From Mobula hypostoma (taxonomy: Eukaryota): a stretch of DNA of 64,000 bases. Of this stretch, positions 6,205 to 62,991 are shown in pieces. Location: the NCBI RefSeq assembly GCF_963921235.1, contig NC_086097.1, positions 117,926,001 to 117,990,000 of the forward strand, in the 5' to 3' direction. Within the stretch, counting starts at the first letter, position 1. Each line of letters begins with the position of its first letter. The notes beneath the pieces were generated by a model. It saw only the letters and a program-made list of their open reading frames with translations, was not told the origin of the DNA and did no database searches. The position numbers and the translations under genes are program-made.

Positions 6205-6715
6205 GTCAGAATCAGCTTTAATATCACTGACATATGTTGTGACATTTGTTGTTATATGGCAGCACTACATTACAAAAACTATATATTTCAATGACAAGTA
6301 TATATAAAATAATTAATTAAAATAAATAGTGCAAAAAGAGAGAAATCAATTCTGAAGTAGTGATATGGGTTCATTCAGAAATCTGATAGCAGAGGAGAAG
6401 AAGCTGTTCCTCAAATGTTGAGTGTCTGTCTTCAGGCTCTTGTACCTGCTGTCTGGTGGTAGCAATGAGGGAAGGGCATGTCCTGGTAATTGTACCTGCT
6501 GTCTGGTGGTAGCAATGAGGGAAGGGCATGTCCTGGTAATGGGGTCCTTAATGATGGATGCCACTTTTTGAGTCATCGCCTTATGAAGGTGTTTTGGCTG
6601 TTTGGGAGGCTAGTGCCCACAATGGAGCTGACTGACTTTACAACTTTCTACAGCTTCTCCATACCAGAAGTTGATGCAGCCAGAGAGAATATCCTCCATG
6701 GTACATCAGTAGAGG
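6205..6715 (-). mobile_element. Rex/Babar-like LINE 3' fragment containing a perfect 50-bp tandem duplication (6441-6540)
   Basis: ASIIKDP..PGHALPSLLPPDSRYKSLKT..RNSFF..AIRFLN on the minus strand. Confidence 0.7.
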
Positions 6716-18678: not shown

Positions 18679-19492
18679 TGTGACGACAAACCAAGTTATC
18701 AGAAGATTGATGCTGATGAGAGAAATAAGTGAGACAATGGAGAAACATTCAAAATGCTAATAAGAGAGATTAACGAGAAAGAAACACATTTCAGAATATT
18801 GACAGACCGGTTGCTTTGAACCTGAACTGTTTAAAGTTTGATGGACAGGCGATACCCCAGCAGGGGGATAAAAAGAACAGGTTCGCTAAGGCATGACACA
18901 CCACGAGATCACGAGATAATGAGACCCTGGAAGAGCGGTGTGCCCCCACAAGTTGTGGGAGTTGGAGGTGTAGTTCGAGGGAACCGACCATAGACTGACA
19001 GGGTGAAAAGGGTACGATCGGCGGGAACCTGGTGTGTGTGTCCGCCCTTGCCTGGGTGCCGGGTTCACCGTGGAGCGGAGTGGAGAGGTCACAGTCGGTG
19101 ACCACAGAAGGTGTAAAAAAGGGCCCACCTGAAAGCCAACTGCAAAGAACATCAAAGGTCTGCTGAATCAGATTTGAATATCTCTATCTCTCTCTCTCTC
19201 CAATGGCACAACAACAATTACTGCGAACTGTACTAAGCTGGACTGAACTCTGTGTCACTTGAGACTGATCATTTTACCCCTAGACTGCGATAGAGCTTGG
19301 TTGATTCCTATCACCCTAGTTCTGTGTACATGTGTGTTTTATCATTGCTAAGCTGTTGCATTTATATCCTTATGATTAGAGTACTGTGTTACTTATTTCT
19401 TTAATAAAACTTTATTAGCTTCTGTTAAACCAGACTCCATCTAAGTGGTCCATTTCTGCTGGTTTGACAACCCAGTTACGGGGTACGTAACA
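18679..19492 (+). repeat. 5' LTR
   Basis: Direct repeat of 24769-25608; TGTGAC...GTAACA; AATAAA at ~19403. Confidence 0.95.
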
Positions 19493-19496
19493 TAAA

Positions 19497-19522
19497 TGGG
19501 GATCTAGTCCGCGATTTTGAAC
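19497..19522 (+). promoter_or_regulatory. Primer-binding site, tRNA-Pro-like (degenerate)
   Basis: TGGGGATCTAGTCCGCGATTTTGAAC just after the LTR resembles TGGGGGCTCGTCCGGGATTTGAAC, the complement of the tRNA-Pro 3' end. Confidence 0.75.
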
Positions 19523-19591
19523 ACCAAATTTGGGACTGGGTAAATTGATTGGGTTAAAATTCCCGAAAGAAAGAAAGGGCAAACAGCAGAA

Positions 19592-22573
19592 ATGGAGATT
19601 GAGGAATTTCTAAAGGCGCCAACCTTGGAGGCATTAGAGGATGCCAGGAGATCAGAATTGGCAACTGTGGCCAAACCGTTGAATCTTTTTAAGGGAAAGT
19701 CGACAATGAGGAGAGTGGAGATGCACAGAGCCATCATAGAGCATTATGTATCTAAAGGTGTGTTTCCCCAAGGGGAGCTGGAGGTGGTATCTATGGGCAA
19801 ACCTGGTGGAGAAGCAGTACAGCTGCAGATTGAAAAATTGAGACTCGAGCACAAGTTCCGTGTAAAACAGCTGGAACAAGAAGAGAGGGACAGGCAGTTA
19901 GAGTGAGAAGAGAGGGACAGGCAGTTAGAACGAGAAGCGAGAGAGAAGCAGAAGGACAGGGAATTTGAGCTGGAGAAGTTAAGGATGACAATAGCGCAGG
20001 GGCCCATGCCGAACCAAGGTGGAGGGTTCAGGGCGACCCAGGAGGTTAGGCTGGTTCCCCCATTTGAGGAGGCCGATGTTGATCGGTACTTTCTACATTT
20101 TGAAAAAGTCGCTGCAAGTCAGGACTGGCCGAGGGATTAGTGGGCTGTTTTGCTTCAAAGCGTACTTAAAAGGAAGGCTCAAGAAGCTTACTCGGCATTG
20201 TTCGCAGAAGATGCCCAGAGGTATGATGTGGTGAAAGAGGCAATACTCAGGATTTATGAGTTGGTCCCGGAGGCATACTGGCAGAGGTTCCGGAATGCGA
20301 GGAAGCAGTGGGGCCGCACATATTTAGAGTTTGCCCGTGAGATGCAGATGTATTGTGAGCATTGGTGCGCCACAAAAGGGGTCAATGGGGATTATAACAG
20401 ACTGCTACAGCTAATACTGATTGAGCAGTTTAAAGGTTGTGTCCCTGAAGGTATGAGACCCTACCTAGATGAGAAAGAGGCAGACACCTTAGCCGCAACT
20501 GCTAAGTTAGCGGATGAATACGCGTTAACGCACAAAGCGAAGTTTACCCCGAGTAAAAGCTACCACAAGGGTAGTCGAGAGGGCGGAGAGAGTCTACCGG
20601 GAAAGTCAGAAAGTAAACCGGGGACTAGTGAGAAGGATAAGGAAGACAGGAAGCAGTTTGGTAGGAAGTCTCCTGGGGTCGTATGCTATAATTGTGGGAA
20701 AGCCGGTCACTTTGCGTCCAGGTGCTTTGCCCCAAAGAAGGAGACGGGGAAAGGAAAAACGACCCCGACTGGCTGTATTGAGCCGGCAAACAAACCGCTA
20801 GGGGAGAAGAGGTCTGATAGAGTTCAGGAAGGGCGCGAGAAGTTTATCTCGGCTGGATTGGTGTCGGTGAAGGAGGGGTTAAACCCGGTTCCAGTACGGA
20901 TCTGGAGAGACACTGGAGCTTGTCAGTCATTGATATTAAAGAGTGTGTTAGACTTCAGTTCAGAGACCCAGACTGGGGAGGTCAGGGTGCTAAAAGGCAT
21001 TGGGAAAGAGACTGAAGCAGTACCTTTGCACCAGATACACCTACAAAGTGACTTGGTCTCCGGACCGGTTACGATCGGGGTGAGGCCCGAACTACTGATG
21101 GATGATGTGGAGGTCTTACTCGGTAATGACCTCACCGGCGGAGAGGTGTACCCAGCAGTAAGATTGACAAGCCAGCCTGCCAGCATTGAGGCCCTGCCTA
21201 TGGACTCACAGGTTTATCCCGTTTGTGCAGTGACACGGCGCATGTCCAGAAAGGCTGTCGAAGTAAATATAGATTTAGCTGAGACGTTTTTACCAGCCTT
21301 GTACCAGAAGGGGTTAGAAAGTGAGAAGGGGTGTAGTGACACGGAAATTGAGGTAGACTTATCATTAGCAAGGAAGGAATTTATACAGGCACAGGAATGA
21401 GACGAGAAGCTGATGGTTTTGACGGAGACAGCTCTCTCCGAAGCAGAATTAAAAAGGGAGCCAGTGGGCTATTATGTGAAGGAGGAAGTACTAAGGAGGT
21501 AATGGAGACCAAGTACCGTGCCCACAGATGAGGAATGGGGGGTGATAGTGCCGAAAATTTATGGGGATGAGATTTTTAACCTGGCCCACAAGATACCCCT
21601 CGGTGGACATTTTGGGGTGAGGAAAACAGTCGATAGAATCATGAAGGAGTTTTACTGGCCGCACAGGAGGAAGGATGCTATTGACAATTGTAGACGTGAG
21701 CTAACACAATTACAGGCTATTGATATGCTAACAGCTTGCCATGATAAGAGATCAGACCTAGTCAGTGTTATCACAAAAATTAATGAGGCTAGGGTGCCAC
21801 CTGATAAGGGGAAAACCCATTTTGAAAAGGTAAGTATGGTGCCGACCAGATGGGAGAACTCTATTGTTCTGGCCAACTTTGCTGATGAGTTCTCTCACTT
21901 AACCCCCGAACAGGGCGAGCCACTGACAAAGCTAATTAACAGGCATGCACACGTATGTCTGGATGTCCCGAGGCGATGCAAAGAGCCGGTACCTGGTGTT
22001 GTTGTCACATCAGGTCAGCCTAGTGAACAACACCCCTATAGGATGATTAATTCAGTGATAAAAGGGCTAAAGAACGCAGAAGCGTATATTGACGATTTAA
22101 TGGTCTGGAGTGACACGTGGGAGGGGCACATTGTGGCAGTAGAGGAACTGTTTACAAAGCTGGCTGAAGCCAGCCTGACAGTGAACCTCGCAAAAAGTGA
22201 ATTCGGCCACGCGAAGGTCACTTATGTGGGATTTGTGGTAGGACAGGGGCAACTGGCTCCGATGCAGGCTAAGGTGTAGGCTATCTCTGAAGTCCCCACC
22301 CCGACAGACAAGAGAGCCCTGAGAAGGTTCTTGGGGATGGTGGGGTACGATCAGATGTTTTGCAAAACCTTTGCGAATATTACCCTCCCTCTTACTAAGC
22401 TCTTGCCAAAGAATGCTAAGTTTGTGTGGGGCGATCTTTGTTATATTTGTCCGGGACAGAAACCACTGAGAATTTACACTGATCACAACCCATTAGTGTT
22501 TTTGGCCACTATGAAGGATAAAAACAAAAGGTTGCTAAATTGGAGCCTGGTCTTAGAGGATATTAAAATAACA
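19592..22573 (+). pseudogene. gag-pol: SCAN-like capsid, CCHC knuckle, aspartic protease, partial integrase, partial RT and RNase H
   Basis: PEAYWQRFR..LILIEQF..LADEY; CYNCGKAGHFASRC; RDTGACQSL; AHKIPLGGHFGVRKT..FYWP; AYIDDL; IYTDHNPL. All pieces lie in one frame separated by point stops; continues as HIKGTENVIADCLSRC at 24600-24650. Confidence 0.9.
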
Positions 22574-24595
22574 TAGAAACATAGAAACATAGAAAATAGG
22601 TGCAGGAGTAGGCCATTCGGCCCTTTGAGCCTGCACCGCCATTTATTATGATCATGGCTGATCATCCAACTCAGAACCCAGCCTTCCCTCCATACCCCCT
22701 GACCCCTGTAGCCACAAGGGCCATATCTAACTTCCTTTTAAACATAGCTAATGAACTGGCCTCAACAGTTTGTTGTGGCAGAGAATTCCACAGATTCACC
22801 ACTCTCTGTGTGAAGAAGTTTTTCCTAACCTCGGTCCTAAAAGGCTTCCCCTCTATCCTCAAACTGTGACCCCTCGTTCTAGACCTCCCCAACATCGGGA
22901 ACAATCTTCCCGCATCTAGCCTGTCCAATCCCTTTAGGATCTTATACGTTTCAATCAGATCCCCCCTCAATCTTCTAAATTCCAACGAGTACAAGCCCAG
23001 TTCATCCAGTCTTTCTTCATATGAAAGACCTGCCATCCCAGGAATCAATCTGGTGAACCTTCTTTGTACTCCCTCTATGGCAAAGATGTCTTTCCTCAGA
23101 TTAGGGGACCAAAACTGCACACAATACTCCAGGTGTGGTCTCACCAAGGCCTTGTACAACTGCAGTAGTACCTCCCTGCTCCTGTACTCGAATCCTCTCG
23201 CTATAAATGCCAGCATACCGTTCGCCTTTTTCACCGCCTGCTGTACCTGCATGCCCACTTTCAATGACTGGTGTATAATGACACCCAGGTCTCGTTGCAC
23301 CTCCCCTTTTCCTAATCGGCCACCATTCAGATAATAATCTGTTTTCCTATTTTTGCCACCAAAGTGGATAACTTCACATTTATCCACATTAAATTGCATC
23401 TGCCATGAGTTTGCCCACTCACCCAACCTATCCAAGTCACCCTGCATCCTCTTAGCATCCTCCTCACTGCTAACACTGCCACCCAGCTTCGTGTCATCCG
23501 CAAACTTGGAGATGCTGCATTTAATTCCCTCATCCAAGTCATTAATATATATTGTAAACAACTGGGGTCCCAGCACTGAGCCTTGCGGTACCCCACTAGT
23601 CACCGCCTGCCATTCTGAAAAGGTCCCGTTTATTCCCACTCTTTGCTTCCTGTCTGCTAACCAATTCTCCACCCACACCAATACCTTACCCCCAATACCG
23701 TGTGCTTTAAGTTTGCACACTAATCTCCTGTGTGGGACCTTGTCAAAAGCCTTTTGAAAATCCAAATATACCACATCCACTGGTTCTCCCCTATCCACTC
23801 TACTAGTTACATCCTCAAAAAATTCTATGAGATTCGTCAGACATGATTTTCCTTTCACAAATCCATGCTGACTTTGTCCGATCATTTCACCGCTTTCCAA
23901 ATGTGCTGTTATCACATCCTTGATAACTGACTCCAGCAGTTTCCCCACCACCGACGTTAGGCTAACCGGCCTATAATTCCCCGGTTTCTCTCTCCCTCCT
24001 TTTTTAAAAAGTGGGGTTACATTAGCCACCCTCCAATCCTCAGGAACTAGTCCAGAATCTAACGAGTTTTGAAAAATTATCACTAATGCATCCACTATTT
24101 CTTGGGCCACTTCCTTAAGCACTCTGGGATGCAGACCATCTGGCCCCGGGGATTTATCTGCCTTCAATCCCTTCAATTTACCTAACACCACTTCCCTACT
24201 AACATGTATTTCGCTCAGTTCCTCCATCTCACTGGACCCTCTGTCCCTTACTATTTCTGGAAGATTATTTATGTCCTCCTTAGTGAAGACAGAACCAAAG
24301 TAATTATTCAATTGGTCTGCCATGTCCTTGCTCCCCATAATCAATTCACCTGTTTCTGTTTGCAGGGGACCTACATTTGTCTTTATCAGTCTTTTCCTTT
24401 TTACATATCTATAAAAGCTTTTACAGTCCGTTTTTATGTTCTCTGCCAGTTTTCTCTCATAATCTTTTTTCCCCTTCCTAATTAAGCCCTTTGTCCTCCT
24501 CTGCTGAACTCTGAATTTCTCCCAGTCCTCAGGTGAGCCACTTTCTCTGGCTAATTTGTATGCTACTTCTTTGGAATTGATACTATCCCTAATTT
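22574..24595 (-). mobile_element. Young 5'-truncated CR1 inserted in the Gypsy RNase H
   Basis: (CATAGAAA)n tail at left; AACA duplicated at 22570-22573 and 24596-24599; host frame EDIKIT|HIKGTEN rejoins across the insertion. Confidence 0.95.
22671..24344 (-). CDS. CR1 ORF2 reverse transcriptase (partial, 557 aa uninterrupted)
   Basis: KSPGPDG, NYRPVSLTS, QHGF, YLDFQKAFDKV, GVPQGSVLGP, KFADDTK motifs. Confidence 0.9.
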   Translation of the reverse strand: MIMGSKDMADQLNNYFGSVFTKEDINNLPEIVRDRGSSEMEELSEIHVSREVVLGKLKGLKADKSPGPDGLHPRVLKEVAQEIVDALVIIFQNSLDSGLVPEDWRVANVTPLFKKGGREKPGNYRPVSLTSVVGKLLESVIKDVITAHLESGEMIGQSQHGFVKGKSCLTNLIEFFEDVTSRVDRGEPVDVVYLDFQKAFDKVPHRRLVCKLKAHGIGGKVLVWVENWLADRKQRVGINGTFSEWQAVTSGVPQGSVLGPQLFTIYINDLDEGIKCSISKFADDTKLGGSVSSEEDAKRMQGDLDRLGEWANSWQMQFNVDKCEVIHFGGKNRKTDYYLNGGRLGKGEVQRDLGVIIHQSLKVGMQVQQAVKKANGMLAFIARGFEYRSREVLLQLYKALVRPHLEYCVQFWSPNLRKDIFAIEGVQRRFTRLIPGMAGLSYEERLDELGLYSLEFRRLRGDLIETYKILKGLDRLDAGRLFPMLGRSRTRGHSLRIEGKPFRTEVRKNFFTQRVVNLWNSLPQQTVEASSLAMFKRKLDMALVATGVRGYGGKAGF

Positions 24596-24768
24596 AACAC
24601 ATATAAAAGGAACAGAAAATGTGATTGCTGACTGTCTGTCAAGGTGTTGAAAACTTAAAGTTCTCTGTATTAGCCGAATAGCTGGTGACCCTGTATATTA
24701 GTGTGTATCTAATAATGTATTCATGCCTATAATTTTTATCCTGGTAAAAATTCTTTGAAGGATAGGGG

Positions 24769-25608
24769 TGTGACGACAAACCAACTTATCAGAAGATTGA
24801 TGCTGATGAGAGAGATAAGTGAGACAATGGAGAAACATTCAAAATGCTAATAAGAGAGAAGAGAGAGAATAACGAGCAGGAAACACATTTCAGAATATTG
24901 ACAGACTGGTTGCTTTGAACCTGAACTGTTTGAAGTTTGATGGACAGGCGATACCCCAGCAGGGGGATAAAAAGAACAGGTTCGCTAAGGCATGACACAC
25001 CACAAGATCACGAGATAATGAGACCCTGGAAGAGCGGTGTGCCCCCACAAGTTGGTGGAGTTGGAGGTCAGGTTCGAGGGAACTGACCATAGACTGACAG
25101 GGTGAAAAGGGTACGATTGGCGGGAACCTGGTGTGTGTGTCCGCCCTTGCCTGGGTGCCGGGTTCACCGTGGAAGAACGGTCGTATCCGGAGTGGAGGGG
25201 TCACAGTTGGTGACCACAGAAGACATAAATAAGGGTCTGCCCGAAAGCCAACTGCGAAGAACATCAAAGGTCTGCTGAATCAGATTTGCATATCTCTATC
25301 TCTCTCTCTCTCTCTCCAACGGCACAACAGCGATTACTGCGAACTGTACTAAGCTGGACTGAACTCTGCGTCACTTGAGACTGATCATTTTACCCCGAGA
25401 CTACGATAGAGCTTGGTTGATTCCTATTACCCTAGTTCTGTGTGCATGCGTGTTTTATCATTGCTAACCTGTTGCATATATATACTTACGATTAGTGTAC
25501 TGTGTTACTTATTTCTTTAATAAAACTTTATTAGCTTCTGTTAAACCAGACTCCAACTAAGTGGTCCATTTCTGCTGGTTTGGCAACCCAGTTATGGGGT
25601 ACGTAACA
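24769..25608 (+). repeat. 3' LTR
   Basis: Direct repeat of 18679-19492, preceded by a polypurine tract. Confidence 0.95.
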
Positions 25609-25799
25609 TTTAAAACTAAATGCTGGTGTGCAGACGCAATGTTCCTCAGATTATCTGCATGAACTCCGTATTCATATGAAATAGAAATATATTGTTGCTC
25701 TTTATTCTAAATATGCTGTTTTGGCAGCAGAAAAGCTACTGTTGGAGGGCTTACTTAAGGCAGCAAACAAGTGGATTTTTAAAAAGTTTGTCCAAGGAA

Positions 25800-33417: not shown

Positions 33418-35120
33418 CAAACAACAGGAATTCTGCAGATGCTGGAAATTCAAGCAACACACATCAAAGTTGCTGGTGAATGCAGCAGGCCAGGCAGCAT
33501 CTCTAGGAAGAGGTGCAGTCGACGTTTCAGGCCGAGACCCTTCGTCAGGACTAACTGAAGGAAGAGTGAGTAAGGGATTTGAAAGTTGGAGAGGGAGGGG
33601 GAGATCCAAAATGATAGGAGAAGACAGAATGGAGAGGGATAGAGCCAAGAGCTGGACAGGTGTAGGCAAAAGGGGATACGAGAGGATCATGGGACAGGAG
33701 GTCTGGGAAGAAAGACAAGGGGGGGGTGACCCAGAGGATGGGCAAGAGGTATATTCAGAGGGACAGAGGGAGAAAAAGGAGAGTGAGAGAAAGAATGTGT
33801 GCATAAAAAGAAGTAACAGATGGGGTACGAGGGGGAGGTGGGGCCTTAGCGGAAGTTAGAGAAGTCGATGTTCATGTAATCAGGTTGGAGGCTACCCAGA
33901 CGGAATATAAGGTGTTGTTCCTCCAACCTGAGTGTGGCTTCATCTTTACAGTAGAGGAGGCCGTGGATAGACATGTCAGAATGGGAATGGGATGTGGAAT
34001 TAAAATGTGTGGCCACTGGGAGATCCAGCTTTCTCTGGCGGACAGAGCGTAGATGTTCAGCAAAGCGGTCTCCCAGTCTGCGTCGGGTCTCGCCAATATA
34101 TAAAAGGCCACATCGGGAGCACCGGACGCAGTATATCACCCCAGTCGACTCACAGGTGAAGTGTTGCCTCACCTGGAAGGACTGTTAGGGGCCCTGAATG
34201 GTGGTAAGGGAGGAAGTGTAAGGGCATGTGTAGCACTTGTTCCGCTTACAGGGATAAGTGCCAGGAGGGAGATCAGTGGGGAGGGATGGGGGGGACAAAT
34301 GGACAAGGGAGTTGCGTAGGGAGCGATCCCTGTGGAATGCAGAGGGGGGGGTGGGAAAGATGTGCTTAGTGGTGGGATCCCATTGGAGGTGGCGGAAGTT
34401 ACGGAGAATAATATGTTGGACCAGGAGGCTGGTGGGGTGGTAGGTGAGGACCAGGGGAACCCTATTCCTAGTGGGGTGGCGGGAGGATGGAGTGAGAGCA
34501 GATGTACGTGAAATGGGGGCGATGCGTTTAAGAGCAGAGTTGATAGTGGAGGAAGGGAAGCCCCTTTCTTTAAAAAAGGAAGACATCTCCCTCGTCCTAG
34601 AATGAAAAGCCTCACCCTGAGAGCAGATGCGGCGGAGACAGAGGAATTGCAAGAAGGGGATGGCGTTTTTGCAAGAGACAGGGTGAGAAGAGGTATAGCC
34701 CAGATAGCTGTGAGAGTCAGTAGGCTTATAGTAGACATCAGTGGATAAGCTGTCTCCAGAGACAAAGACAGAAAGATCTAGAAAGGGGAGGGAGGTGTCG
34801 GAAATGGACCAGGTAAACTTGAGAGCAGGGTGAAAGTTGGAGGCAAAGTTAATAAAGTCAACGAGTTCTGTATGTGTGCAGGAAGCAGCGCCAATGCAGT
34901 CGTCAATGTAGCGAAGGAAAAGTGGGGGATAGATACCAGAATAGGCACGGAACATAGATTGTTCCACAAAGCCAACAAAAAGGCAGGCATAGCTAGGACC
35001 CATACGGGTGCCCATAGCTACACCTTTAGTTTGGAGGATGTGGAAGGAGCCAAAAGAGAAATTATTAAGAGTAAGGACTAATTCCGCTAGACGGAGCAGA
35101 GTGGTGGTAGAGGGGAACTG
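33418..35120 (-). mobile_element. Penelope-like (Neptune-type) element, 5'-truncated, 13-bp TSD
   Basis: RT MGTRMGPSYA..RYIDD and GIY-YIG VIYC..LYIGET; ATTAACTACAACT at 33405-33417 and 35121-35133. Confidence 0.95.
33517..33552 (-). ncRNA. Minimal type I hammerhead ribozyme motif
   Basis: Minus strand reads AGTC-CTGACGA-AGGgtctcggCCT-GAAA-CG-TC-GACT. Confidence 0.75.
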
Positions 35121-35214
35121 ATTAACTACAACTAATAGTTATCAGAGCTTTATACACTGAATAAGTCCTGTGAATTTGGAAATTTGAGAAACTCACTAGT
35201 TAGAGACAGGATAG

Positions 35215-37426: not shown

Positions 37427-39466
37427 GCCTACTTCTTCGGCAAGGACTCTTCCACCCCCACCGATGACCCCTTCTCCCGTCTTCGACCCTCTTCTTCTTC
37501 ATGGACACCCCGCTCTGGTCTTCTGCCTGCTCTGGATCTCTTTATCGCTAACTGCCAACGGGACATCAACCGTCTCAACTTCACCGCACCTTGTCCCCAT
37601 TCCAACCTCACTCCTTCGGAACGCTCTGCTCTCCACTCCCTCCGCACTAATCCTAACGTTATTATTAAACCCGCCGATAAGGGGGGTGCTGTTGTAGTCT
37701 GGCGTACTGACCTCTACCTTGCCGAGGCACAGCGACAACTCGCGGATACCTCCTCTTATTTACCCCTCGATCGTGACCCCACTAAGGAGCACCAGGCCAT
37801 TGTCTCCCACACCATCACCGACTTTATCCGCTCAGGGGATCTCCCATCCACTGCCACCAACCGTATAGTTCCCACACCCCGCACTTCCCGTTTCTACCTC
37901 CTACCCAAGATCCACAAACCTGCCTGTCCTGGCCGACCTATTGTCTCAGCTTGCTCCTGCCCCACCGAACTCATTTCTGCATACCTCGACACTGTTTTAT
38001 CACCCCTTGTTCAATCCCTTCCGACCTATGTTCGTGACACTTCTCATGCTCTTAAACTTTTCGATGATTTTAAGTTCCCTGGCCCCCACCGCTTTATTTT
38101 CACCATGGATGTCCAGTCCTTATATACTTCCATCCCCCATCAGGAAGGTCTCACAGCTCTACGCTTCTTTTTGGATTCCAGACCTAATCAGTTCCCCTCT
38201 ACCACCACTCTGCTCCGTCTAGCGGAATTAGTCCTTACTCTTAATAATTTCTACTTTGGCTCCTCCCAATTCCTCCAAACTAAACGTGTAGCTATGGGCA
38301 CCCGTATGGGTCCTAGCTATGCCTGCCTTTTTGTTGGCTTTGTGGAACAATCTATGTTCCGTGCCTATTCTGGTATCTGTCCCCTACTTTTCCTTCGCTA
38401 CATCGATGACTGCATTGGCGCTGCTTCCTGCACGCATGCAGAACACGTTGACTTTATTAACTTTGCCTCCAACTTTCACCCTGCCCTCAAGTTTACCTGG
38501 TCCATTTCCAACACCTCCCCCCCCTTTCTAGATCTTTCTGTCTCTGTCTCTGGAGACAGCTTATCCACTGATGTCTACTATAAGCCTACTGACTCTCACA
38601 GCTATCTGGACTATTCCTCTTCTCACCCTGTCTCTTGCAAAAACGCCATCCCCTTCTCGCAATTCCTCCTTCTCCGCCGCATCTGCTCTCAGGATGAGGC
38701 TTTTCATTCTAGGACGAGGGAGATGTCTTCCTTTTTTAAAGAAAGGGGCTTCCCTTCCTCCACTATCAACTCTGCTCTTAAACGCATCTCCCCCATTTCA
38801 CATACATCTGCTCTCACTCCATCCTCCCACCACCCCACTAGGAATAGGGTTCCCCTGGTCCTCACCTACCACCCCACCAGCCTCCGGGTCCAACATATTA
38901 TTCTCCGTAACTTCCGCCACCTCCAACGGGATCCCACCACTAAGCACATCTATCCCTCCCCCCCTCTCTCTGCATTCTGCAGGGATCGCTCCCTACACAA
39001 CTCCCTTGTCCATTCGTCCCCCCCATCCCTCCCCACTGATCTCCCTCCTGGCACTTATCCCTGTAAGCGGAACAAGTGCTACACATGCCCTTACACTTCC
39101 TCCCTTACCACCATTCAGGGCCCCAAACAGTCCTTCCAGGTGAGGCATCACTTCATCTGTGAGTCGACTGGGGTGATATACTGTGTCCGGTACTCCCGAT
39201 GTGGCCTTTTATATATTGGCGAGACCCGACGCAGACTGGGAGACCGCTTTGCTGAACATCTACGCTCTGTCCGCCAGAGAAAGCAGGATCTCCCAGTGGC
39301 CACACATTTTTATTCCACATCCCATTCCCATTCTGACATGTCTATCCACGGCCTCCTCTACTGTAAAGATGAAGCCACACTCAGGTTGGAGGAACAACGC
39401 CTTATATTCCGTCTGGGTAGCCTCCAACCTGATGGCATGAACATCGACTTCTCTAACTTCCGCTAA
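37427..39466 (+). CDS. PLE reverse transcriptase plus GIY-YIG endonuclease; frame appears open from the TGA at 37424-37426, first ATG at 38105
   Basis: 453-aa ORF in the track plus in-frame upstream PLE motifs read by eye; upstream frameshift and stop indicate an inactive copy. Confidence 0.8.
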   Translation, partial: AYFFGKDSSTPTDDPFSRLRPSSSSWTPRSGLLPALDLFIANCQRDINRLNFTAPCPHSNLTPSERSALHSLRTNPNVIIKPADKGGAVVVWRTDLYLAEAQRQLADTSSYLPLDRDPTKEHQAIVSHTITDFIRSGDLPSTATNRIVPTPRTSRFYLLPKIHKPACPGRPIVSACSCPTELISAYLDTVLSPLVQSLPTYVRDTSHALKLFDDFKFPGPHRFIFTMDVQSLYTSIPHQEGLTALRFFLDSRPNQFPSTTTLLRLAELVLTLNNFYFGSSQFLQTKRVAMGTRMGPSYACLFVGFVEQSMFRAYSGICPLLFLRYIDDCIGAASCTHAEHVDFINFASNFHPALKFTWSISNTSPPFLDLSVSVSGDSLSTDVYYKPTDSHSYLDYSSSHPVSCKNAIPFSQFLLLRRICSQDEAFHSRTREMSSFFKERGFPSSTINSALKRISPISHTSALTPSSHHPTRNRVPLVLTYHPTSLRVQHIILRNFRHLQRDPTTKHIYPSPPLSAFCRDRSLHNSLVHSSPPSLPTDLPPGTYPCKRNKCYTCPYTSSLTTIQGPKQSFQVRHHFICESTGVIYCVRYSRCGLLYIGETRRRLGDRFAEHLRSVRQRKQDLPVATHFYSTSHSHSDMSIHGLLYCKDEATLRLEEQRLIFRLGSLQPDGMNIDFSNFR

Positions 39467-39761
39467 GGCCCCACCTCCCCCTCGTACCCCATCTGTTACT
39501 CATTCTTATGCACACATTCTTTCTCTCACTCTCCTTTTTCTCCCTCTGTTCCTCTGAATATACCTCTTGCCCATCCTCTGGGTCACACCCCCCCCCGTCC
39601 TTCTTCCCAGACCTCCTGTCCCATGATCCTCTCATATCTCCTTTTGCCTATCACCTGTCCAGCTCTCGGCTCTATCCCTCCCCCTGCTCTCTTCTCCTAT
39701 CATTTTGGATCTCCCCCTCCCCCTCCAACTTTCAAATCCCTTACTCACTCTTCCTTCAGTT

Positions 39762-39797
39762 AGTCCTGACGAAGGGTCTCGGCCTGAAACGTCGACT
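39762..39797 (+). ncRNA. Minimal type I hammerhead ribozyme motif
   Basis: AGTC-CTGACGA-AGGgtctcggCCT-GAAA-CG-TC-GACT: stem I AGTC/GACT, CUGANGA and GAAA boxes, GUC triplet. Confidence 0.75.
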
Positions 39798-42700
39798 GCA
39801 CCTCTTCCTAGAGATGCTGCCTGGCCTGCTGCGTTCACCAACAACTTTGATGTGTGTTGCTTGAATTTCCAGCATCTGCAGAATTCCTGTTGGTTGCCTA
39901 TGTTGACATGATTGTCACCTCCCTTCCAGTGTCTCCTGAGAGAACAGGGAAGATTAGTAAAACAACAAGGCCAGGTGAAACAAGAAAGAACTCAAAGATA
40001 CAAAGCAGACGGGATGGCCTGCAGCTAGAAATGACTGTCCAATGTGTATTTTTGCTTATTGGACGTGCAGAGCTGAAATGCCAGTGGTGAAAGATATGGT
40101 CTTCAAAGGGTACAGGTTTATGTTTCCAGTATTGCTATGCAAGGAAATGCTCCAGAAGATACAGTACATGAAAGGCATCTTGGTGAGGAAAAATGTAAAT
40201 GTAGAGCTCATGAGGTGATGTACTAGCCAAGAATGAACCAAGATATCAGCTTGAATCAAGATATTGCTTCATGTGAAATATGCCTTACCTACAGACCAAA
40301 GCAGAACGCAGAACCACTTACATCACACCCTGTATCAGACAGTCTGTACTTCAAAGTAGGAGTGGATTTGATTGATTGTAATTAGAAGAGTTATATTGTT
40401 GTAAGAGACTACTTTTCTGATTACCCAGAGTTTGCAACACTGCAATCAACATCCAGCAAGGCGATCATCACCTTCCGAAAGATGTGTTTCTGAGGCATGG
40501 AGTTCCATGTGAAGTGGTATCAGACAATGGTCCACAATTTTCAAGCTGTGAGTTTCAGTCCTTTGCCATTGATTGGGGGTTTAAAAATAAAACTTCAAGC
40601 CCACATCACCTAAAATCTAATAGCTTAGCAGAGAGTTCAGTCAAGGTAGTGAAGGACTTCAAGAAGAAAGGACAAGATGAATGAGAGGATTTCCACAAAA
40701 GTCTGATGATTTACAAAAATGTGCCACTGCAGAATGGCCTTTTACCAGCCCATATGCTGATGGGTTGATGCATACACACTAACCTTCCAGTCGACACCTA
40801 AAGGAGCCCACAAGATCAAATTGGCTAAAGTAAAAGAGAACGAGAAACCAATGCAGTATTATGACAAGACTATGAAAAGCCTACCAGTCCTGAAGCCTGA
40901 ACATCAAGTGCAAATCCAAGACCAAGATTCTGGTACATGGTCCATGCAAGGATATGTGCAAGAGGAAGCAGCTCCACATTCCTACCAGATCCAGACAGAG
41001 AGAGGAACACCTCTGAGAAGTAACTACATGGATCTACAACCATAAGCTCCAACCCTGTCACCTGCCAGTTTACCAAAGGGGCCAGCATTTGTAAACATTG
41101 AATATGTTGATCAGAATTCTCAGAAAGACACAAATATTAAGCAGCCTAAGCAAGCAATGCACCTGTGGAAATAAATAGCAGACTAAAAATGTCCATTAAA
41201 CCACCTCAGAGGCCAATTGAAAGTTGTTGAGTGGATTAGACAGTGCAGTTGCTCATTACCATTGAAGTTGAAATAGTGAACAGTTGAAAATTTGAAAGAA
41301 AAGAAGAGACTGACAATGGAATGTAGATATCTTTTTTGGGAAGATTTGTTGTTCTCTGCAGTCCTATAAGGACATAGAATTGTGTTTGTTTTCCTTCCAA
41401 GAGGGACATGTATTATTATGTGTGCATAATAAAGAACTTCAGTTGCCAGTGGGCAATGTGAGGAGTTCACCCAGAACCAGAAACTATGAAGGCTGTGCAC
41501 ACAGAGCATTGAGCAGCTGTTCAGCAATAAAATGTTCTAACATAAACTCACACCAAGTTAGTCTTGGCCTGAAACGTTGACTGTACCTCTTCTTAGAGAT
41601 GCTGCCTGGCCTGCTGCATTCACCAGCAACTTTGATGTGTGTTGCAGGAGTAGTCCATTCGGCCCTTCGAGCCTGCACTGCCATTCAGTATGATCATGGC
41701 TGATCATCCAACTCAGAACCCTGTACCAGCCTTCCCTCCATATCCCCTGATCCCTTTAGCCACAAGGGCCATATCTAACTCCCTCTTAAATATAGCCAAT
41801 GAACTGGCCTCAACTGTTTCCTGTGGCAGAGAATTCCACAGATTCACCACTCTCTGTGTGAAGAAGTTTTTCCTCATCTCGGTCCTAAAAGGCTTCCCCT
41901 TTGTCCTCAAACTGTGACCTCTCGTTCTGGACTTCTCCAACATCTGGAACAATCCTCCTGCATCTAACCTGTCCAATCCCTTTAGGATTTTATACGTTTC
42001 AATAATATGCCCCCTCAATCTTCTAAATTCCAACAAATATAAGCCTAGTCGATCCAGTCTTTCATCATATGAAAGTCCTGCCATCCCAGGAATCAATCTG
42101 GTGAACCTTCTTGGTACTCCCTCTATGGCAAGGATGCCTTTCCTCAGATTAGGGGACCAAAACTGCACACAATGCTCCAGGTGTGGTCTCACCAAGGCCT
42201 TGTACAAATGCAGTAGTACCTCCCTGCTCCTGTATTCAAATCCTCTTGCTATGAATGCCAGCATACCATTTGCCTTTTTCACCGCCTGCTGTACCTGCAT
42301 GCCCACTTTCAATGACTGGTGTATAATGACACCCAGATCTCGTTGCACCTCCCCTTTTCCTAATCGGCCACCATTCAGATAATAATCTGTTTTCCTGTTT
42401 TTGCCACCAAAGTGGATAACCTCACATTTATCCACATTAAATTGCATCTGCCATGAATTTGCCCACTCACCCAACCTATCCATGTCACCCTGCATCCTCT
42501 TAGCATCCTCCTCACAGCTAACACTGCTGCCCAGCTTCATGTCATCCGCAAACTTGGAGAAGCTGCATTTAATTCCCTCATCTAAGTCATTAAGATATAT
42601 CGTAAACAACTGGGGTCCCAGCACTGAGCCTTGCGGTACCCCATTAGTCACTGCCTGACATTCTGAAAAGTTCCCGTTTATTCCCACTCTTTGCTTCCTG

Positions 42701-43026
42701 TCTGCCGACCAATTCTCTATCCACATCAGTACCTTACCCCCAATGCCGTGTGCTTTAAGTTTGCACACTAATCTCCTGTGTGGGACCTTGTCAAAAGCCT
42801 TTTGAAAATCCAAATATACCACAATCACTGGTTCTCCCCTATCCACTCTACTAGTTACATCCTCAAAAAATTCTATGAGATTTGTCAGACATGATTTTCC
42901 TTTCACAAATCCATGCTGACTTTGTCCGATGATTTCACAGCTTTTCAAATGTGCTGTTATCACATCTTTGATAACTGACTCTAGCATTTTCCCCACCACT
43001 GATGTCAGGCTAACTGGTCTATAATT

Positions 43027-43247
43027 CAAACAACAGGAATTCTGCAGATGCTGGAAATTCAAGCAACATACATCAAAGTTGCTGGTGAATGCAGCAGGCC
43101 AGGCAGCATCTATAGGAAGAAGCGCAGTCGACGTTTCAGGCCGAGACCCTTCGTCCTGACGAAGGGTCTCGGCCTGAAACGTCGACTGCGCTTCTTCCTA
43201 TAGATGCTGCCTGGCCTGCTGCGTTCACCAGCAACTTTGATGTATGT
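43027..43247. mobile_element. Fold-back mini-element made of the PLE terminus, 12-13-bp TSD
   Basis: ~92-bp near-perfect inverted arms (43064-43155 and 43158-43249); TGGTCTATAATT(C) at 43015-43027 and 43248-43260. Confidence 0.95.
43153..43186 (+). ncRNA. Hammerhead ribozyme motif at the hairpin centre
   Basis: GTC-CTGACGA-AGGgtctcggCCT-GAAA-CG-TC-GAC. Confidence 0.65.
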
Positions 43248-45444
43248 TGGTCTATAATTCCCCAGTTTCTCTCTCCCTCCTTTTTTTAAAAAGTGGGGTT
43301 ACATTAGCCACCCTCCAATCCTCAGGAACTAATCCAGAATCTAAAGAGTTTTGAAAAATTATCACTAATGCATCCACTATTTCTTGGACTACTTCCTTAA
43401 GTACTCTGGGATGCAGACCATCTGACCCTAGGGATTTATCTGCCTTTAATCCCTTCAATTTACCTAACACCACTTCCCTAATAACATGTATTTCCCTCAG
43501 TTCCTCAGTCTCACTGGACCCTCTGTCCCCTACTATTTCTGGAAGATCATTTATGTCCTCCTTAGTGTAGACAGAACCAAAGTAATTATTCAATTGATCT
43601 GCCGTGTCCTTGCTCCCCATAATCAATTCGCCTGTTTCTGTCTGTAGGGGACCTACATTTGTCTTAACCAATCTTTTTCTTTTCACATATCTATAAACAC
43701 TTTTACAGTCAGTTTTTATGTTCCCTGCCAGTTTTCTCTCATAATCTTTATTCCCTTTCCTAATTAAGCCCTTTTTCCTCCTCTGCTGGACTCTGAATTT
43801 CTCCTAGTCCTCAGGTGAGGCACTTTTTCTGGCTAATTTGTATGTTTCTTCTTTGGAATTGATACTATCCCTAATTTCCCTTGTCAGCCACGGGTGCACT
43901 ATCTTCCCTGATTTATTCTTTTGCCAAACTGGGATGAACAATTGTTGTAGTTCATCCATGCGATCTTTAAATGCTTGCCATTGCATATCCACCGTCAACC
44001 CTTTAAGTGTTATTTGCCAGTCTATCTTCTTTAAGTTTGGAAACTTTGTTTCTGAATTAACTATGTCACTCTCCATCTTAATGAAGAATTCCACTATATT
44101 ATGGTCACTCTTACCCAAGGGGCCTCTCACGACAAGATTGCTAACTAACCCTTCCTCATTGCTCAATACCCAGTCTAGAATAGCCTGCTCTCTAATTGGT
44201 TCTTTGACACGTTGGTTCAAAAAACCATCCCGCATCCATTCCAAGAAATCCTCTTCCTCAGCATCCTTACAATTTGATTCACCCAATCTATATGTAGATT
44301 GAAGTCACCATTATAACTGCTGTTCCTTTATTGCATGCATTTCTAATTTCCTGTTTAATACCATCCCCAACCTCACTACTACTGTTAGGTGGCCTGTACA
44401 CAACTTTCACCACCGGTTTCTGCCCTTTAGTGTTAAGCAGCTCTACCCATATCGATTCCACATCCTCCCGGCTAATGTCCTTCCTTCCTATTACAGTAAT
44501 CTCCTCTCTAACCAGCAATGCTTCTGCACCTCCTTTTCTTTCATGTCTATCCCTCCCGAATATTGAATATCCCTGAATGTTGAGCTCCCATCCTTCGTCA
44601 CCCTGGAGCCATGAGCCATGTCTCTGTGATCCCAACTATATCATAGTCATTAATAACAATCTGCACTTTTAATTCATCCACCTTGTTATGAATGCTCCTT
44701 GCATTGACACACAAAGCCTTCAGGTTTGCTTTTGCAACATTCTTAGCCCTTATACAATTATGTTGAAAAGCGGCCCTTTTTGATTTTTGCCCTGGATTTG
44801 CCGGCCTGCCACTTTTACTTTTCACCTTACTACTTTTTGCTTCTACCCTCATTTTACACCCCTCTGTCTCTCTGCACTTGTTCCCATTCCCCTGTTGTGA
44901 ACTAACCTCCTCTCTCCTAGTCTCTTTAATTTGATTCCCAGGTTGTACTTCTTCCCCTCCTCCCACCATCTTATTCTGGCCTCTTCCTTTCCACTCCTGA
45001 TCAGGCTCTTGGCCCAAAACATCGACTGTTTATTCCTCTCCATAGGTTCTGCCTGACCTGCCACCTCCTCCAGCATTTTCTGTGTTACTCTGGTTAATCA
45101 GAACATGCAAAATCTTTTGTGATTAAAATTAAAGCCTACAAATATTATGAAATTGTTTAGAAATTGATTTTTATATATAAAGGCATTTAAAAATTCACAC
45201 ATTTGTTTAAAAACTCCTAAGTGAATGTAAAATTTCAGTAACCCTTACCCAGAAGTATTGAGTTTAATACCATGGAAGTAAAGAGCGTGCCAGCCTACAG
45301 AGTCTCATGAGAAGTGATCACATTGAACCTATTCAAACATACCATTTCATAGATACCATTGAGGAAGATGTTTGGAAGCACCAGGAGAACTTCAGCAATG
45401 ATTTGATGCTGAACTTAGAAAGTTGCCAAGAAATCTCCTAAGGA

Positions 45445-58543: not shown

Positions 58544-59157
58544 TATATTTCCTGGTTCCTCCAATTCCCAGCCAGTTGACTACAGTTAATCAATTACAGC
58601 TAGATATCTTATTATCCAACAGAATATATCCTAAGGGATAGTAGGATTTAATTTAAATTATGTATTTCAAGTAAAATTACCCTTTTACTTACCAAAGTTC
58701 TCACTCTGTAGTTACTGAACTCAATGTTAATAACTAACTCCATTCAACGAATAGTCCATTTTATTATCTGCTATAGTAGACAGAAAGATGTCACCAATAC
58801 AGGAGGGATAAATTTATAAGAGGTTGGGGGGGTTTTGTCCATGGAGTGCTGTAGACTTAGGGATGACTGAGAGGGGAAGATAGTGTCAGCATACATCGGT
58901 GACTCTATGTGGGCTGCAGAAAACTGTACCAGTTTTCCTCTTAAATATAATCCTTTTGAATACTTTTACTACAATCTGCAGCAAGTAAATTTCCTCTTAA
59001 CAACGATCTGCAAAATTACATCAAAAACCTTCCAATCTCACTTTCGAACATTAAAAGTGGAGCAGAAGTCATGAGCTCCAACGTAGCAGTTAAGTTCGGC
59101 ACCTTTAAGGGTCAACACCATGGCCAAAAATGCAGCAGGAGAGGCAGAATTCAAACC

Positions 59158-60005
59158 GGGCTGAAGGGCGGAAGGATGAGGCGTCCTCTACCCAGCATCT
59201 TGTTGACAAATGTACAGTTGCTGGAAAATAAGATTAACGATCTCAGGGCAAGGCTGCAGTATCAGAGGCTGATGAGGCAGATCTCAATTGTTTTTGCACT
59301 GAAACTTGGTTAACTGTGAATATTCCTGATGTAGCTATACAACCGATTTTAAGAATGGATCAAGCAGTGAACTCTGGTAAGGAAAAAGGTGGCAGCGTGT
59401 GCTTTTCAGTCAATTCTTGTTGGTGCACAGGAATGTTGGAGTTATGTTGACTCCTTGTTCCCCTTCTTGAACAACTAACAATTAAATGTAGACCATTCTA
59501 TTTGCCTCGGGAGTTCTCATCCGTGATCCCAACCACAGCTTATATACCACCTGCACTCATGAAACTGCACAATGTTGTCTGCAGACAAGAAACAATTCAT
59601 CCTGATGCATTTCAAACTATAGTCAGTGACTTTAACCAGGCCCATTTGAAGAAAACCCTGCCCTATTATCACCAGCACATAACCTGTTGCACCAAAGATC
59701 TCAACACACAAGACCACTATCACAGTACGAAGAAGAGTTCCTATCATTCTTTTCTGTATTTTGGCAAGTCGGATCAATTGGCTGCACGCCTACTACTTGC
59801 TTACAGACAGCACCTAAAGAGCAAGGCTCCAGAGATCAGGACAATTAAGAGATGGTTGCAGGAGGCAGAGGAATGGTTACAGGATTGCCTTGGGTCAGTG
59901 GACTGGGCCGTGTTCAAGGACCCAAGTGAGGACCAGAATGATTCTATTTCTTCTCTAATCCTCTTACTGGAATCCAAGGATTCATAGAGCACCTGCTTAT
60001 TTCTT
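59158..60005 (+). repeat. 848-bp direct repeat, copy 1 (decayed Rex/Babar-like endonuclease region)
   Basis: Matches 61594-62441 at offset 2436, with identical ORF translations; LPSILLTNVQLLENK, ETWL-like and PFYLPREFSS motifs. Confidence 0.95.
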
Positions 60006-61590
60006 TCTTTTTAAATCTTTTTATTGAGTAAGTATACAAAAAAGGTAAGCCATATAAACATTAATACAATGTTAAAGTATAATAAAATTCCAAAAGGTAT
60101 CAATACCAAAAAAAATACTACAAACAATGTAATTTAAACATAAGAAACCAAGATAACATAATAGTATACTAAATTTTATATATATCAATGGAAAAAAAGA
60201 AAAAAAAACACGAAAAAAAAACCCCAAAAAAAAAACCCACCGTGCAACTAACTAAAAGCAAGGCAAAGCAATGGGCTAACTTGAAACCAAACAGAGTTAA
60301 ACTTAAAATCACGTCCTCAATCCCGACCTCCATTAAAAACAGTGAAAAAAAAAACAAGAAGGGTAAATATTACATTAAATGAAAATATCGAATAAAAGGT
60401 CCCCAAATCTGTTCAAATTTAAATGAAGAATCATAAAGGTTACTTCTAATTTTCTCCAAATTCAAACATAAAATCGTCTGAGAAAACCAAAAAAAGGTAG
60501 TTGGAGCATTAAGCTCTTTCCAATGTTGTAAAATACATCTTTTCGCCATTAAAGTAAGAAATGCAATCATTCTACGGGCTGAAGGGGAAAGATTACTAGA
60601 AATTTTAGGTAGTCCAAAGATAGCAGTAATAGGGTGAGGAGAGATATCTATATTTAATACCTTAGAAATAATATTAAAAATATCTCTCCAAAAAGTTTCC
60701 AAAGTAGGACAAGACCAAAACATATGAGTTAAAGAGGCTATCTGCCCCGAACATCTATCACAGAAAGGATTAATATGCGAGTAAAAATGCGCTAACTTAT
60801 CTTTGGACATATGTGCTCTATGAACCACTTTAAATTGAATTAGGGAATGTTTAGCACAAACAGAGGAAGTATTAACTAATTGTAAAATCTGCCCCCAATC
60901 ATCCACAGAAATGGTAAGCCCCAATTCCTGTTCCCAATCTACCCTAATCTTATCAAATGGAGCTTTCCTAAGTTTCATAATAATATTATAAATCATAGCC
61001 GATGCACCTTTCTGACATGGATTGAGGTTAATTATCGAATCTAAAATATATGTAGGAGGAAGCATTGGAAAGGAAGAAAGTATAGTACTTAGGAAATTTC
61101 TAACTTGTAAATATCTAAAAAATGTATTCTTGATAAGTTATATTTATTAGATAATTGTTCAAAAGACATAAGGGAACCATCTAAAAATAAATCCAAAAAC
61201 CGTAAAATACCCTTAGTCTTCCAAGTTTGAAAAGCGCGATCCGTAAAAGAGGGAGGAAAAAATATGTTACCTAAAATAGGAATCGCTAACCCGAATTGAT
61301 TAAGATCAAAAAATTTTCTGAATTGAAACCAAATGCGCAAAGCATATTTAACTATCGGGTTAGAGACCTGCTTAAGGCGTTTCGAATCAAAAGGGAGAGA
61401 GGAGCCTAAAATAGAGCCAAGTGTATAACCCTGAACAGATTGTAATTCCAATGCTACCCATTTAGGAATAGATAGTATGTCCTGGTCAAGTAACCAAAAT
61501 TTCATATGTCGAATATTAATAGCCCAATAATAGAATCTAAAGTTAGTTAATGCTAAACCTCCATCTCTCTTAGCTTTCTGTAAATGTATT
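60006..61590 (-). mobile_element. 5'-truncated L1 LINE (ORF2 C-terminus, 3' UTR, A-rich tail)
   Basis: LQKAKRDGGLAL.NFRFYYWA; QFKVVHR..CDRC..LTHMFWSC zinc-binding region; AATAAA and A-rich tail at 60006-60025 on the minus strand; one frameshift. Confidence 0.95.
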
Positions 61591-61593
61591 GAA

Positions 61594-62441
61594 GGGCTGA
61601 AGGGCGGAAGGATGAGGCGTCCTCTACCCAGCATCTTGTTGACAAATGTACAGTTGCTGGAAAATAAGATTAACGATCTCAGGGCAAGGCTGCAGTATCA
61701 GAGGCTGATGAGGCAGATCTCAATTGTTTTTGCACTGAAACTTGGTTAACTGTGAATATTCCTGATGTAGCTATACAACCGATTTTAAGAATGGATCAAG
61801 CAGTGAACTCTGGTAAGGAAAAAGGTGGCAGCGTGTGCTTTTCAGTCAATTCTTGTTGGTGCACAGGAATGTTGGAGTTATGTTGACTCCTTGTTCCCCT
61901 TCTTGAACAACTAACAATTAAATGTAGACCATTCTATTTGCCTCGGGAGTTCTCATCCGTGATCCCAACCACAGCTTATATACCACCTGCACTCATGAAA
62001 CTGCACAATGTTGTCTGCAGACAAGAAACAATTCATCCTGATGCATTTCAAACTATAGTCAGTGACTTTAACCAGGCCCATTTGAAGAAAACCCTGCCCT
62101 ATTATCACCAGCACATAACCTGTTGCACCAAAGATCTCAACACACAAGACCACTATCACAGTACGAAGAAGAGTTCCTATCATTCTTTTCTGTATTTTGG
62201 CAAGTCGGATCAATTGGCTGCACGCCTACTACTTGCTTACAGACAGCACCTAAAGAGCAAGGCTCCAGAGATCAGGACAATTAAGAGATGGTTGCAGGAG
62301 GCAGAGGAATGGTTACAGGATTGCCTTGGGTCAGTGGACTGGGCCGTGTTCAAGGACCCAAGTGAGGACCAGAATGATTCTATTTCTTCTCTAATCCTCT
62401 TACTGGAATCCAAGGATTCATAGAGCACCTGCTTATTTCTT
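61594..62441 (+). repeat. 848-bp direct repeat, copy 2
   Basis: Matches 59158-60005. Confidence 0.95.
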
Positions 62442-62991
62442 GACTGTCAAACTGGCAATGTCTTCCTTCTATTAGATGCCTACTTTTTATTTTATTTCAA
62501 AGTTCTTTGTGTTCCCTTTTGCCTTCCTTTTATTTAAGATCTAAGTACTTGTTATTTGTCTTTTCTTTAGTTTCTGTTTTCCTCACTTACCTGATTCTGG
62601 CTTTGACAGGACTATATCCCTCTTCAGTTCTATTGATTACAAATTGTAGATTCTCCATTGTTTTCTCTCTTCATTGGTTTGGTCAGCTCTTTTCTGAAGT
62701 TGGCCATTATTCATTCTTTTCTACTTCCTCACACTTTGCATTTTACCCATTTTATTTTCTTAGTCTGGTACCTCCATCCATCAATTTCAGTTCCAACTAT
62801 TAACTTTGACTGAGGTGCTTTCCTCACATCTCCTTGTTTTGCTTTATTACCCATAAAGTGATAAATTAACAGTTTTAATTATTCTCATTGTTATTCATTT
62901 CTTTTTGTTTTCAATATGAGTGATGTACAGTAGATGGGCTAAATGCAAACAAGTGTTTTTTAATAAGATTGGGTGAGACAAGAACTAGAGA

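Follow-up and report, generated by a model that had tools for sequence, protein, structure and literature searches.

Within the 64-kb window (i.e., the whole stretch of DNA that was analysed), a 5'-truncated L1 element is bracketed by two identical copies of an 848-bp segment, and it is likely that this locus arose by one recent target-primed L1 insertion that was accompanied by an 848-bp target-site duplication (Table 1). The original prediction had already proposed a recent L1 insertion duplicating 0.85 kb of host DNA, and the evidence set out below agrees with it on each of the following points: the identity of the copies, the continuity of an old LINE across the left edge of the first copy, an endonuclease-like site at the 3' junction and a 5' junction that appears to be templated.

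Table 1. Features of the duplicated segment and the inserted L1 (window coordinates).
Feature	Positions	Strand	Remarks
Decayed single-ORF LINE fragment, endonuclease region	59038..59963	+	Found by tblastn; crosses left edge of copy 1
12-mer at far breakpoint, CGGGCTGAAGGG	59157..59168	+	Identical to L1 interior 60575-60586
Copy 1 of 848-bp duplication	59158..60005	+	By homology, host target DNA, continuous with left flank; 848/848 identity
L1 3' UTR	60006..60369	-	364 nt including tail; AATAAA at 60025-60020; tail AAAAAGA at 60012-60006
5'-truncated L1 ORF2, C-terminal part with zf-RVT	60370..61590	-	TAA stop 60370-60372; one frameshift in T run 61117-61122
12-mer in L1 interior	60575..60586	+	Identical to far breakpoint; orientation lets cDNA pair with the target strand finally joined
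Three non-L1 bases GAA, 5' junction	61591..61593	+	Complete TGAAGGG, apparent copy of target 59162-59168
Copy 2 of 848-bp duplication	61594..62441	+	Begins mid reading frame of old LINE; old-LINE homology from 61597
Putative first-strand nick site TCTT/GA (empty allele)	62438..62443	+	TCTT/g is among the human L1 cleavage sites of PMC5223499, Table 3

The two flanking copies, previously judged identical by eye, indeed do not differ at any of their 848 bases in a pairwise comparison, and the match extends neither to the left nor to the right. This pair stands apart from the other repeats of the window: the next longest exact direct repeat measures 123 bp, the longest exact inverted repeat 110 bp, and the remaining long repeats are 92-96% identical. 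Zero differences over 848 bases place the divergence of the copies below 0.35% at 95% confidence. If 0.8-2.5e-9 substitutions per site per year are assumed, the insertion would date from less than about 0.7-2.2 million years ago, provided that gene conversion has not made the copies uniform. The direct repeat adjoins the 3' end of the L1 directly, while three extra bases separate it from the 5' end. The A-rich tail had been described as abutting the end of copy 1, and this contact is direct, but the tail (AAAAAGA) is very short and merges into the target AAGAAA, so that up to 6 bases of the repeat could represent 3' microhomology and the true length of the duplication could be anywhere from 842 to 848 bp.

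The description of the copies as old, decayed LINE sequence was borne out by homology to single-ORF LINE proteins. The old LINE was recovered by tblastn in pieces at 59038-59292 (P0007), 59104-59289 (P0018) and 59137-59292 (P0004), followed by 59265-59963, and its relatives carry the combination PF03372, PF00078 and PF09004 (30 hits among 801 candidates); we take it to be of the Rex1/Babar type. Its homology runs unbroken over 59157/59158, where copy 1 begins, whereas at copy 2 it sets in abruptly. Copy 1 is, therefore, continuous with its left flank, while the start of copy 2 marks a new break; a target-site duplication requires just this arrangement. Judged by this homology, the duplicated copies are local host DNA. 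The old LINE carries on into the left flank, and the possibility that the L1 transduced the segment is rejected for this reason. Because the old LINE stops at about 59945-59963, some 40-60 bp short of the end of the duplication, this check of host continuity covers the left edge only.

The insert between the copies (60006-61593; 1,588 bp) corresponds to the 1.6-kb minus-strand L1 piece of the original prediction and comprises the 3' end of ORF2 and the 3' UTR. It contains two open frames on the minus strand, of 167 and 255 residues, the second of which carries a zf-RVT domain (PF13966, E 2.7e-6). The first frame has three relatives (61-68% identity) among 431 candidates, and for two of these the annotated source is the stingray Hypanus sabinus; the relatives point to a cartilaginous fish, probably a ray, as the host. 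One relative, P0002 (63% identity to the insert frame), contains both an endonuclease domain and a reverse transcriptase domain and has human L1 ORF2p as a match (E 4e-175), and a profile built from the insert together with two relatives aligns with 872-1247 of human ORF2p (E 7.5e-9). On the basis of the zf-RVT domain, the domains and ORF2p match of P0002 and the profile match, the insert is classified as a 5'-truncated element of the L1 clade, from which the part encoding the APE endonuclease and the reverse transcriptase, both seen in P0002, has been truncated away. The 3' end is organised as AATAAA, AAGATTT and then the tail, which amounts to 7 nt only.

The frame of the L1 changes at a run of six T (61117-61122) where the relatives read through. 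This homopolymer frameshift is the sole lesion seen in the L1 frame, while the flanking copies are unmutated; it may reflect a slip during reverse transcription, a defective source element or an assembly error. Both the frameshift and the 7-nt tail, which is unlike most of the tails of the de novo human L1s in PMC5223499, count against the reading of the locus as a single insertion. The relative P0001 bears the name "Bardet-Biedl syndrome 5 protein homolog isoform X1" (Hypanus sabinus), but the ORF2 fragment of the L1 aligns to its residues 64-471, and it is probably a gene model into which an L1 has been taken up.

Further copies of the L1 family of the insert were found neither in the 64-kb window nor among viral contigs (11 pattern hits, 0 confirmed) or metagenome contigs (593 pattern hits, 0 confirmed; 0 matches in another search of metagenome contigs). 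The words of a 5,401-base query of the locus were also looked up in 18 sequencing runs (as contigs). Four runs of one organism (A) contained a share of 0.81-0.86 of these words, four runs of another (B) 0.30-0.34, seven runs less than 0.1 and three none. The runs of organism A probably derive from the source sample and would then not be independent. The share in organism B is close to that of the L1 in the query (1,588 of 5,401 bases) and may stem from either an orthologous locus or copies of the L1 family; like the seven runs with low shares and the three with none, it is given no weight here.

The 3' junction is of the type expected for an L1 endonuclease. The single-copy empty site, as reconstructed from the two copies, would read TATTTCTT/GA, and the resemblance to the consensus TTTT/AA that the original prediction had pointed out is upheld: TCTT/GA, which sits at the exact end of the L1, belongs to a class (Y4/RA with at least three T) that occupies 0.4% of the positions in the window, or 1.8% when the looser Y4/R2 is applied. 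This consensus is that of human L1, and it is assumed that the fish enzyme shares its preference. No stable hairpin was found at either breakpoint (-1.1 to -5.0 kcal/mol, values that were obtained without a shuffle control).

The same site preference bears on a different origin of the locus, in which L1 had inserted twice, independently and at points 848 bp from each other, into different chromosomes. The two insertions would then have been merged, by the assembler if it switched haplotype within the shared L1, or by unequal crossing-over in vivo. Such a merger would yield exactly the observed succession of copy, (chimeric) L1 and copy with identical copies, and heterozygous regions are prone to false duplication (PMC9516828). 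It would, however, require that a second L1 was primed at the left edge, and the stretch between -40 and +45 of that edge contains no Y4/R2 site; if the rule is relaxed, priming at the closest sites that have three T or more would entail a deletion of 51 bp or a duplication of 44 bp. Furthermore, the L1 is the only one of its kind in 64 kb, so that two hits 848 bp apart would be unlikely, and the false duplications treated in PMC9516828 are most often separated by gaps, whereas none of the 64,000 bases of the window is an N and, hence, no assembly gap lies between the two copies. We consider the merger of two insertions unlikely.

A tandem duplication could also have arisen by itself, through replication slippage or break repair, and its junction could have been patched with L1 cDNA or, once in existence, have received the L1 by blunt insertion. 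The bare junction would read TCTT/GG, which is likewise a pyrimidine-purine step, the very short tail of the L1 counts in favour of this route, and duplications without an insert do occur in the window, as is evident from a perfect 50-bp tandem duplication at 6440-6540 that has nothing between its copies. Nevertheless, the L1 would have had to land exactly at the junction without itself producing a duplication, TCTT/GA, the site in its single-copy form, already suits the endonuclease, and the 3' end of the L1 is complete, AATAAA included. An independent origin of the duplication is, on this evidence, improbable to a marked degree.

At the 5' junction, the homology to L1 begins at IHLQK, directly after a Lys codon, while the relative P0001 reads KIHLQK there. 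By this comparison GAA at 61591-61593 (or TGAA, if the Lys codon was AAG) is non-L1. That these three extra bases echo TGAAGGG had been noticed before, and the protein homology together with the template at 59162-59168 now substantiates this: the extra bases look as if they had been copied from the end of the target. The chance of finding a local template for them is about 0.3% when the T is counted and 1.0% without it. Extra bases at the 5' end are common, being present in 14.6% of the 5'-truncated L1s of human and chimpanzee surveyed in PMC2912911, and templated insertions copied from within 15 bp or less of the site have been described (bioRxiv 2024.08.27.596794). At the far breakpoint, the minus strand, which is the one that must end there, reads GCCC/GG and is not endonuclease-like.

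The product and the junction sequences can be read from the locus itself, while the order of events is our reconstruction. Under a single insertion, the L1 endonuclease would have nicked the plus strand at TCTT/GA, after which the T-rich 3' end would have primed on the short A-rich end of the RNA. Reverse transcription would then have made about 1.59 kb of cDNA, the product of which lies at 60006-61590, and would have halted within ORF2. Subsequently, the end of the cDNA may have engaged the opposite strand 848 bp upstream, pairing by the T at 59162 and copying GAAGGG, and may then have slipped back to the terminal GGG before continuing; such a slip after the copying of GAAGGG would explain the extra GAA. 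Finally, the 848 bp would have been copied again, leaving host copy, L1 and host copy as the end product. This second copying could have proceeded through break-induced replication or through strand displacement that followed a distant second nick. Both of these routes fit the re-copying, and the sequence does not separate them. Long target-site duplications of L1 had originally been put down to a distant second-strand nick as rare products. This route, with strand displacement, is indeed published (PMC5223499) but is only one of two, since break-induced replication has been published as well (bioRxiv 2024.12.14.628481).

The same end product could conceivably have come about through a circle composed of the 848-bp target and the L1 cDNA, excised from the insertion intermediate and re-entering the same segment by homologous recombination. 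Zorro3, an element of the L1 clade, makes circles, and the model of the authors places target DNA in them (PMC3510499); a unit of segment plus L1 is what such a circle would be expected to contain. This route adds two steps for the same product, however, and the account of Zorro3 in PMC3510499, as far as it is drawn on here, describes no target-carrying circle of such a size. We regard it as very improbable indeed.

The single-insertion reading leaves room for a further element, new at this locus, which we present as a lead rather than a result. The 12 bases at the far breakpoint are identical to 12 bases in the interior of the L1 (Table 1). Among random positions, a 12-mer match to the L1 touching the position was found on the same strand at 113 of 58,976 (0.19%) and on either strand at 264 (0.45%), and none of 5,208 GC-rich 12-mers matched the L1. 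A weaker control with gapped alignments gave 19 of 1,500 random 40-mers that scored as high, or 14 of 1,444 when homopolymers were left out. Overall, the chance of the 12-base match is 0.2-1.3%, for a match that was spotted post hoc with two breakpoints open to inspection. At the other breakpoint, exact matches to the L1 reach only 7 bases, and the final junction did not use the 12-mer, about 1 kb more of the cDNA having been retained.

The 12-mer looks native to the L1, as the SPS residues that it encodes are also present in the relative P0003. Its capture from the target is, for the same reason, judged unlikely. Twin priming is ruled out as an explanation of the match, since the target end is identical to the RNA rather than complementary to it and no inversion is present. 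It might be imagined that the tethered cDNA invaded through these 12 bases and thereby fixed the cut or the capture of the second strand, so that base pairing of the cDNA determined where the duplication ended on the far side, although we find this doubtful. The match is the one lead of wider reach, as it bears on how the second strand is cut: if a choice guided by the cDNA were general, the "random distant nicks" behind giant target-site duplications would in part be guided by the cDNA.

Large target-site duplications of L1 are rare but already documented, and the locus adds a case to a known class. For de novo human L1 insertions in cultured cells, duplications of 842, 863, 886 and 887 bp were reported, along with a TCTT/g site with a duplication of 277 bp; duplications of more than 100 bp made up at most 10% of the events in HeLa cells but occurred in 4 of 7 events in XPA-, 21 of 23 in XPC- and 22 of 28 in XPD-deficient cells, which are deficient in nucleotide excision repair (PMC5223499). 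These events resemble the present one in the 5'-truncated L1, the endonuclease-type site and the size of the duplications. They differ in that the L1s were engineered human elements, studied in cell lines and mostly ending in long poly(A), whereas a natural fish-type L1 in a cartilaginous-fish assembly, with a 7-nt tail, is concerned here. Tandem duplications of 1-10 kb associated with L1 have been described as "large TSDs" and ascribed to break-induced replication (bioRxiv 2024.12.14.628481), and duplications constitute 14 of 152 retrotransposon-bridged rearrangements in tumours (bioRxiv 2024.08.27.596794). As in these cases, an L1 bridges the junction of a tandem duplication; however, both sets are somatic, from human tumours or induced clones, while the duplication reported here is slightly smaller than 1 kb and presumably inherited.

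In 20 human samples sequenced with long reads, 24 transposon-insertion-mediated duplications were called, of which 6 involved L1 (PMC8219666). They share the definition that applies to our locus, i.e., a central element with both sides aligning to one region of the reference, albeit in human. The zebrafish LINE ZfL2-2 produced a 1,228-bp target-site duplication in 1 of 25 insertions in wild-type DT40 chicken cells (PMC2666801). This is likewise a fish LINE with a duplication of roughly 1 kb, made in repair-proficient cells, but ZfL2-2 belongs to the L2 clade and was studied in an engineered assay in chicken cells. For HERV-K, duplications of 250 bp have been reported (PMC5488345). Our literature search identified no report of a large L1 target-site duplication in a cartilaginous fish, which does not show that none exists. 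If the single-insertion reading is true, the locus would represent a natural, apparently inherited, non-mammalian case in which L1 copied almost 1 kb of host DNA upon insertion.

A duplication of nearly 1 kb would suffice to duplicate an exon, had the L1 hit a gene. Since only dead LINE DNA was duplicated here, no effect on the animal is expected. Large L1 duplications are probably under-counted, because one genome-wide survey restricted duplications to 5-30 bp by design (PMC2912911) and because long repeats may recombine the L1 away, as is discussed in PMC5223499.

Several other mobile elements are present in the 64-kb window. A Penelope-like element occurs as an inverted pair (33418-35124 and 38185-39896; 96% identity over 1.7 kb) for which no clear shared target duplication was found, and a Penelope-like copy at 37427-39466 contains a frame of 679 residues with a reverse transcriptase and a weak GIY-YIG hit. 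A CR1-type LINE is broken at 43015-43260 by a fold-back of roughly 220 bp, which is built from the same Penelope-like end and forms a 186-bp palindrome (98%). Direct repeats of 13 bp, at 43015 and 43248, border the fold-back and represent a target duplication of normal length within the window. An LTR retrotransposon at 18679-25609, with terminal repeats that are 92% identical and with SCAN, zf-CCHC gag and integrase-zinc hits, is itself interrupted by a LINE (about 22570-24595) that holds an open reverse transcriptase frame of 640 residues.
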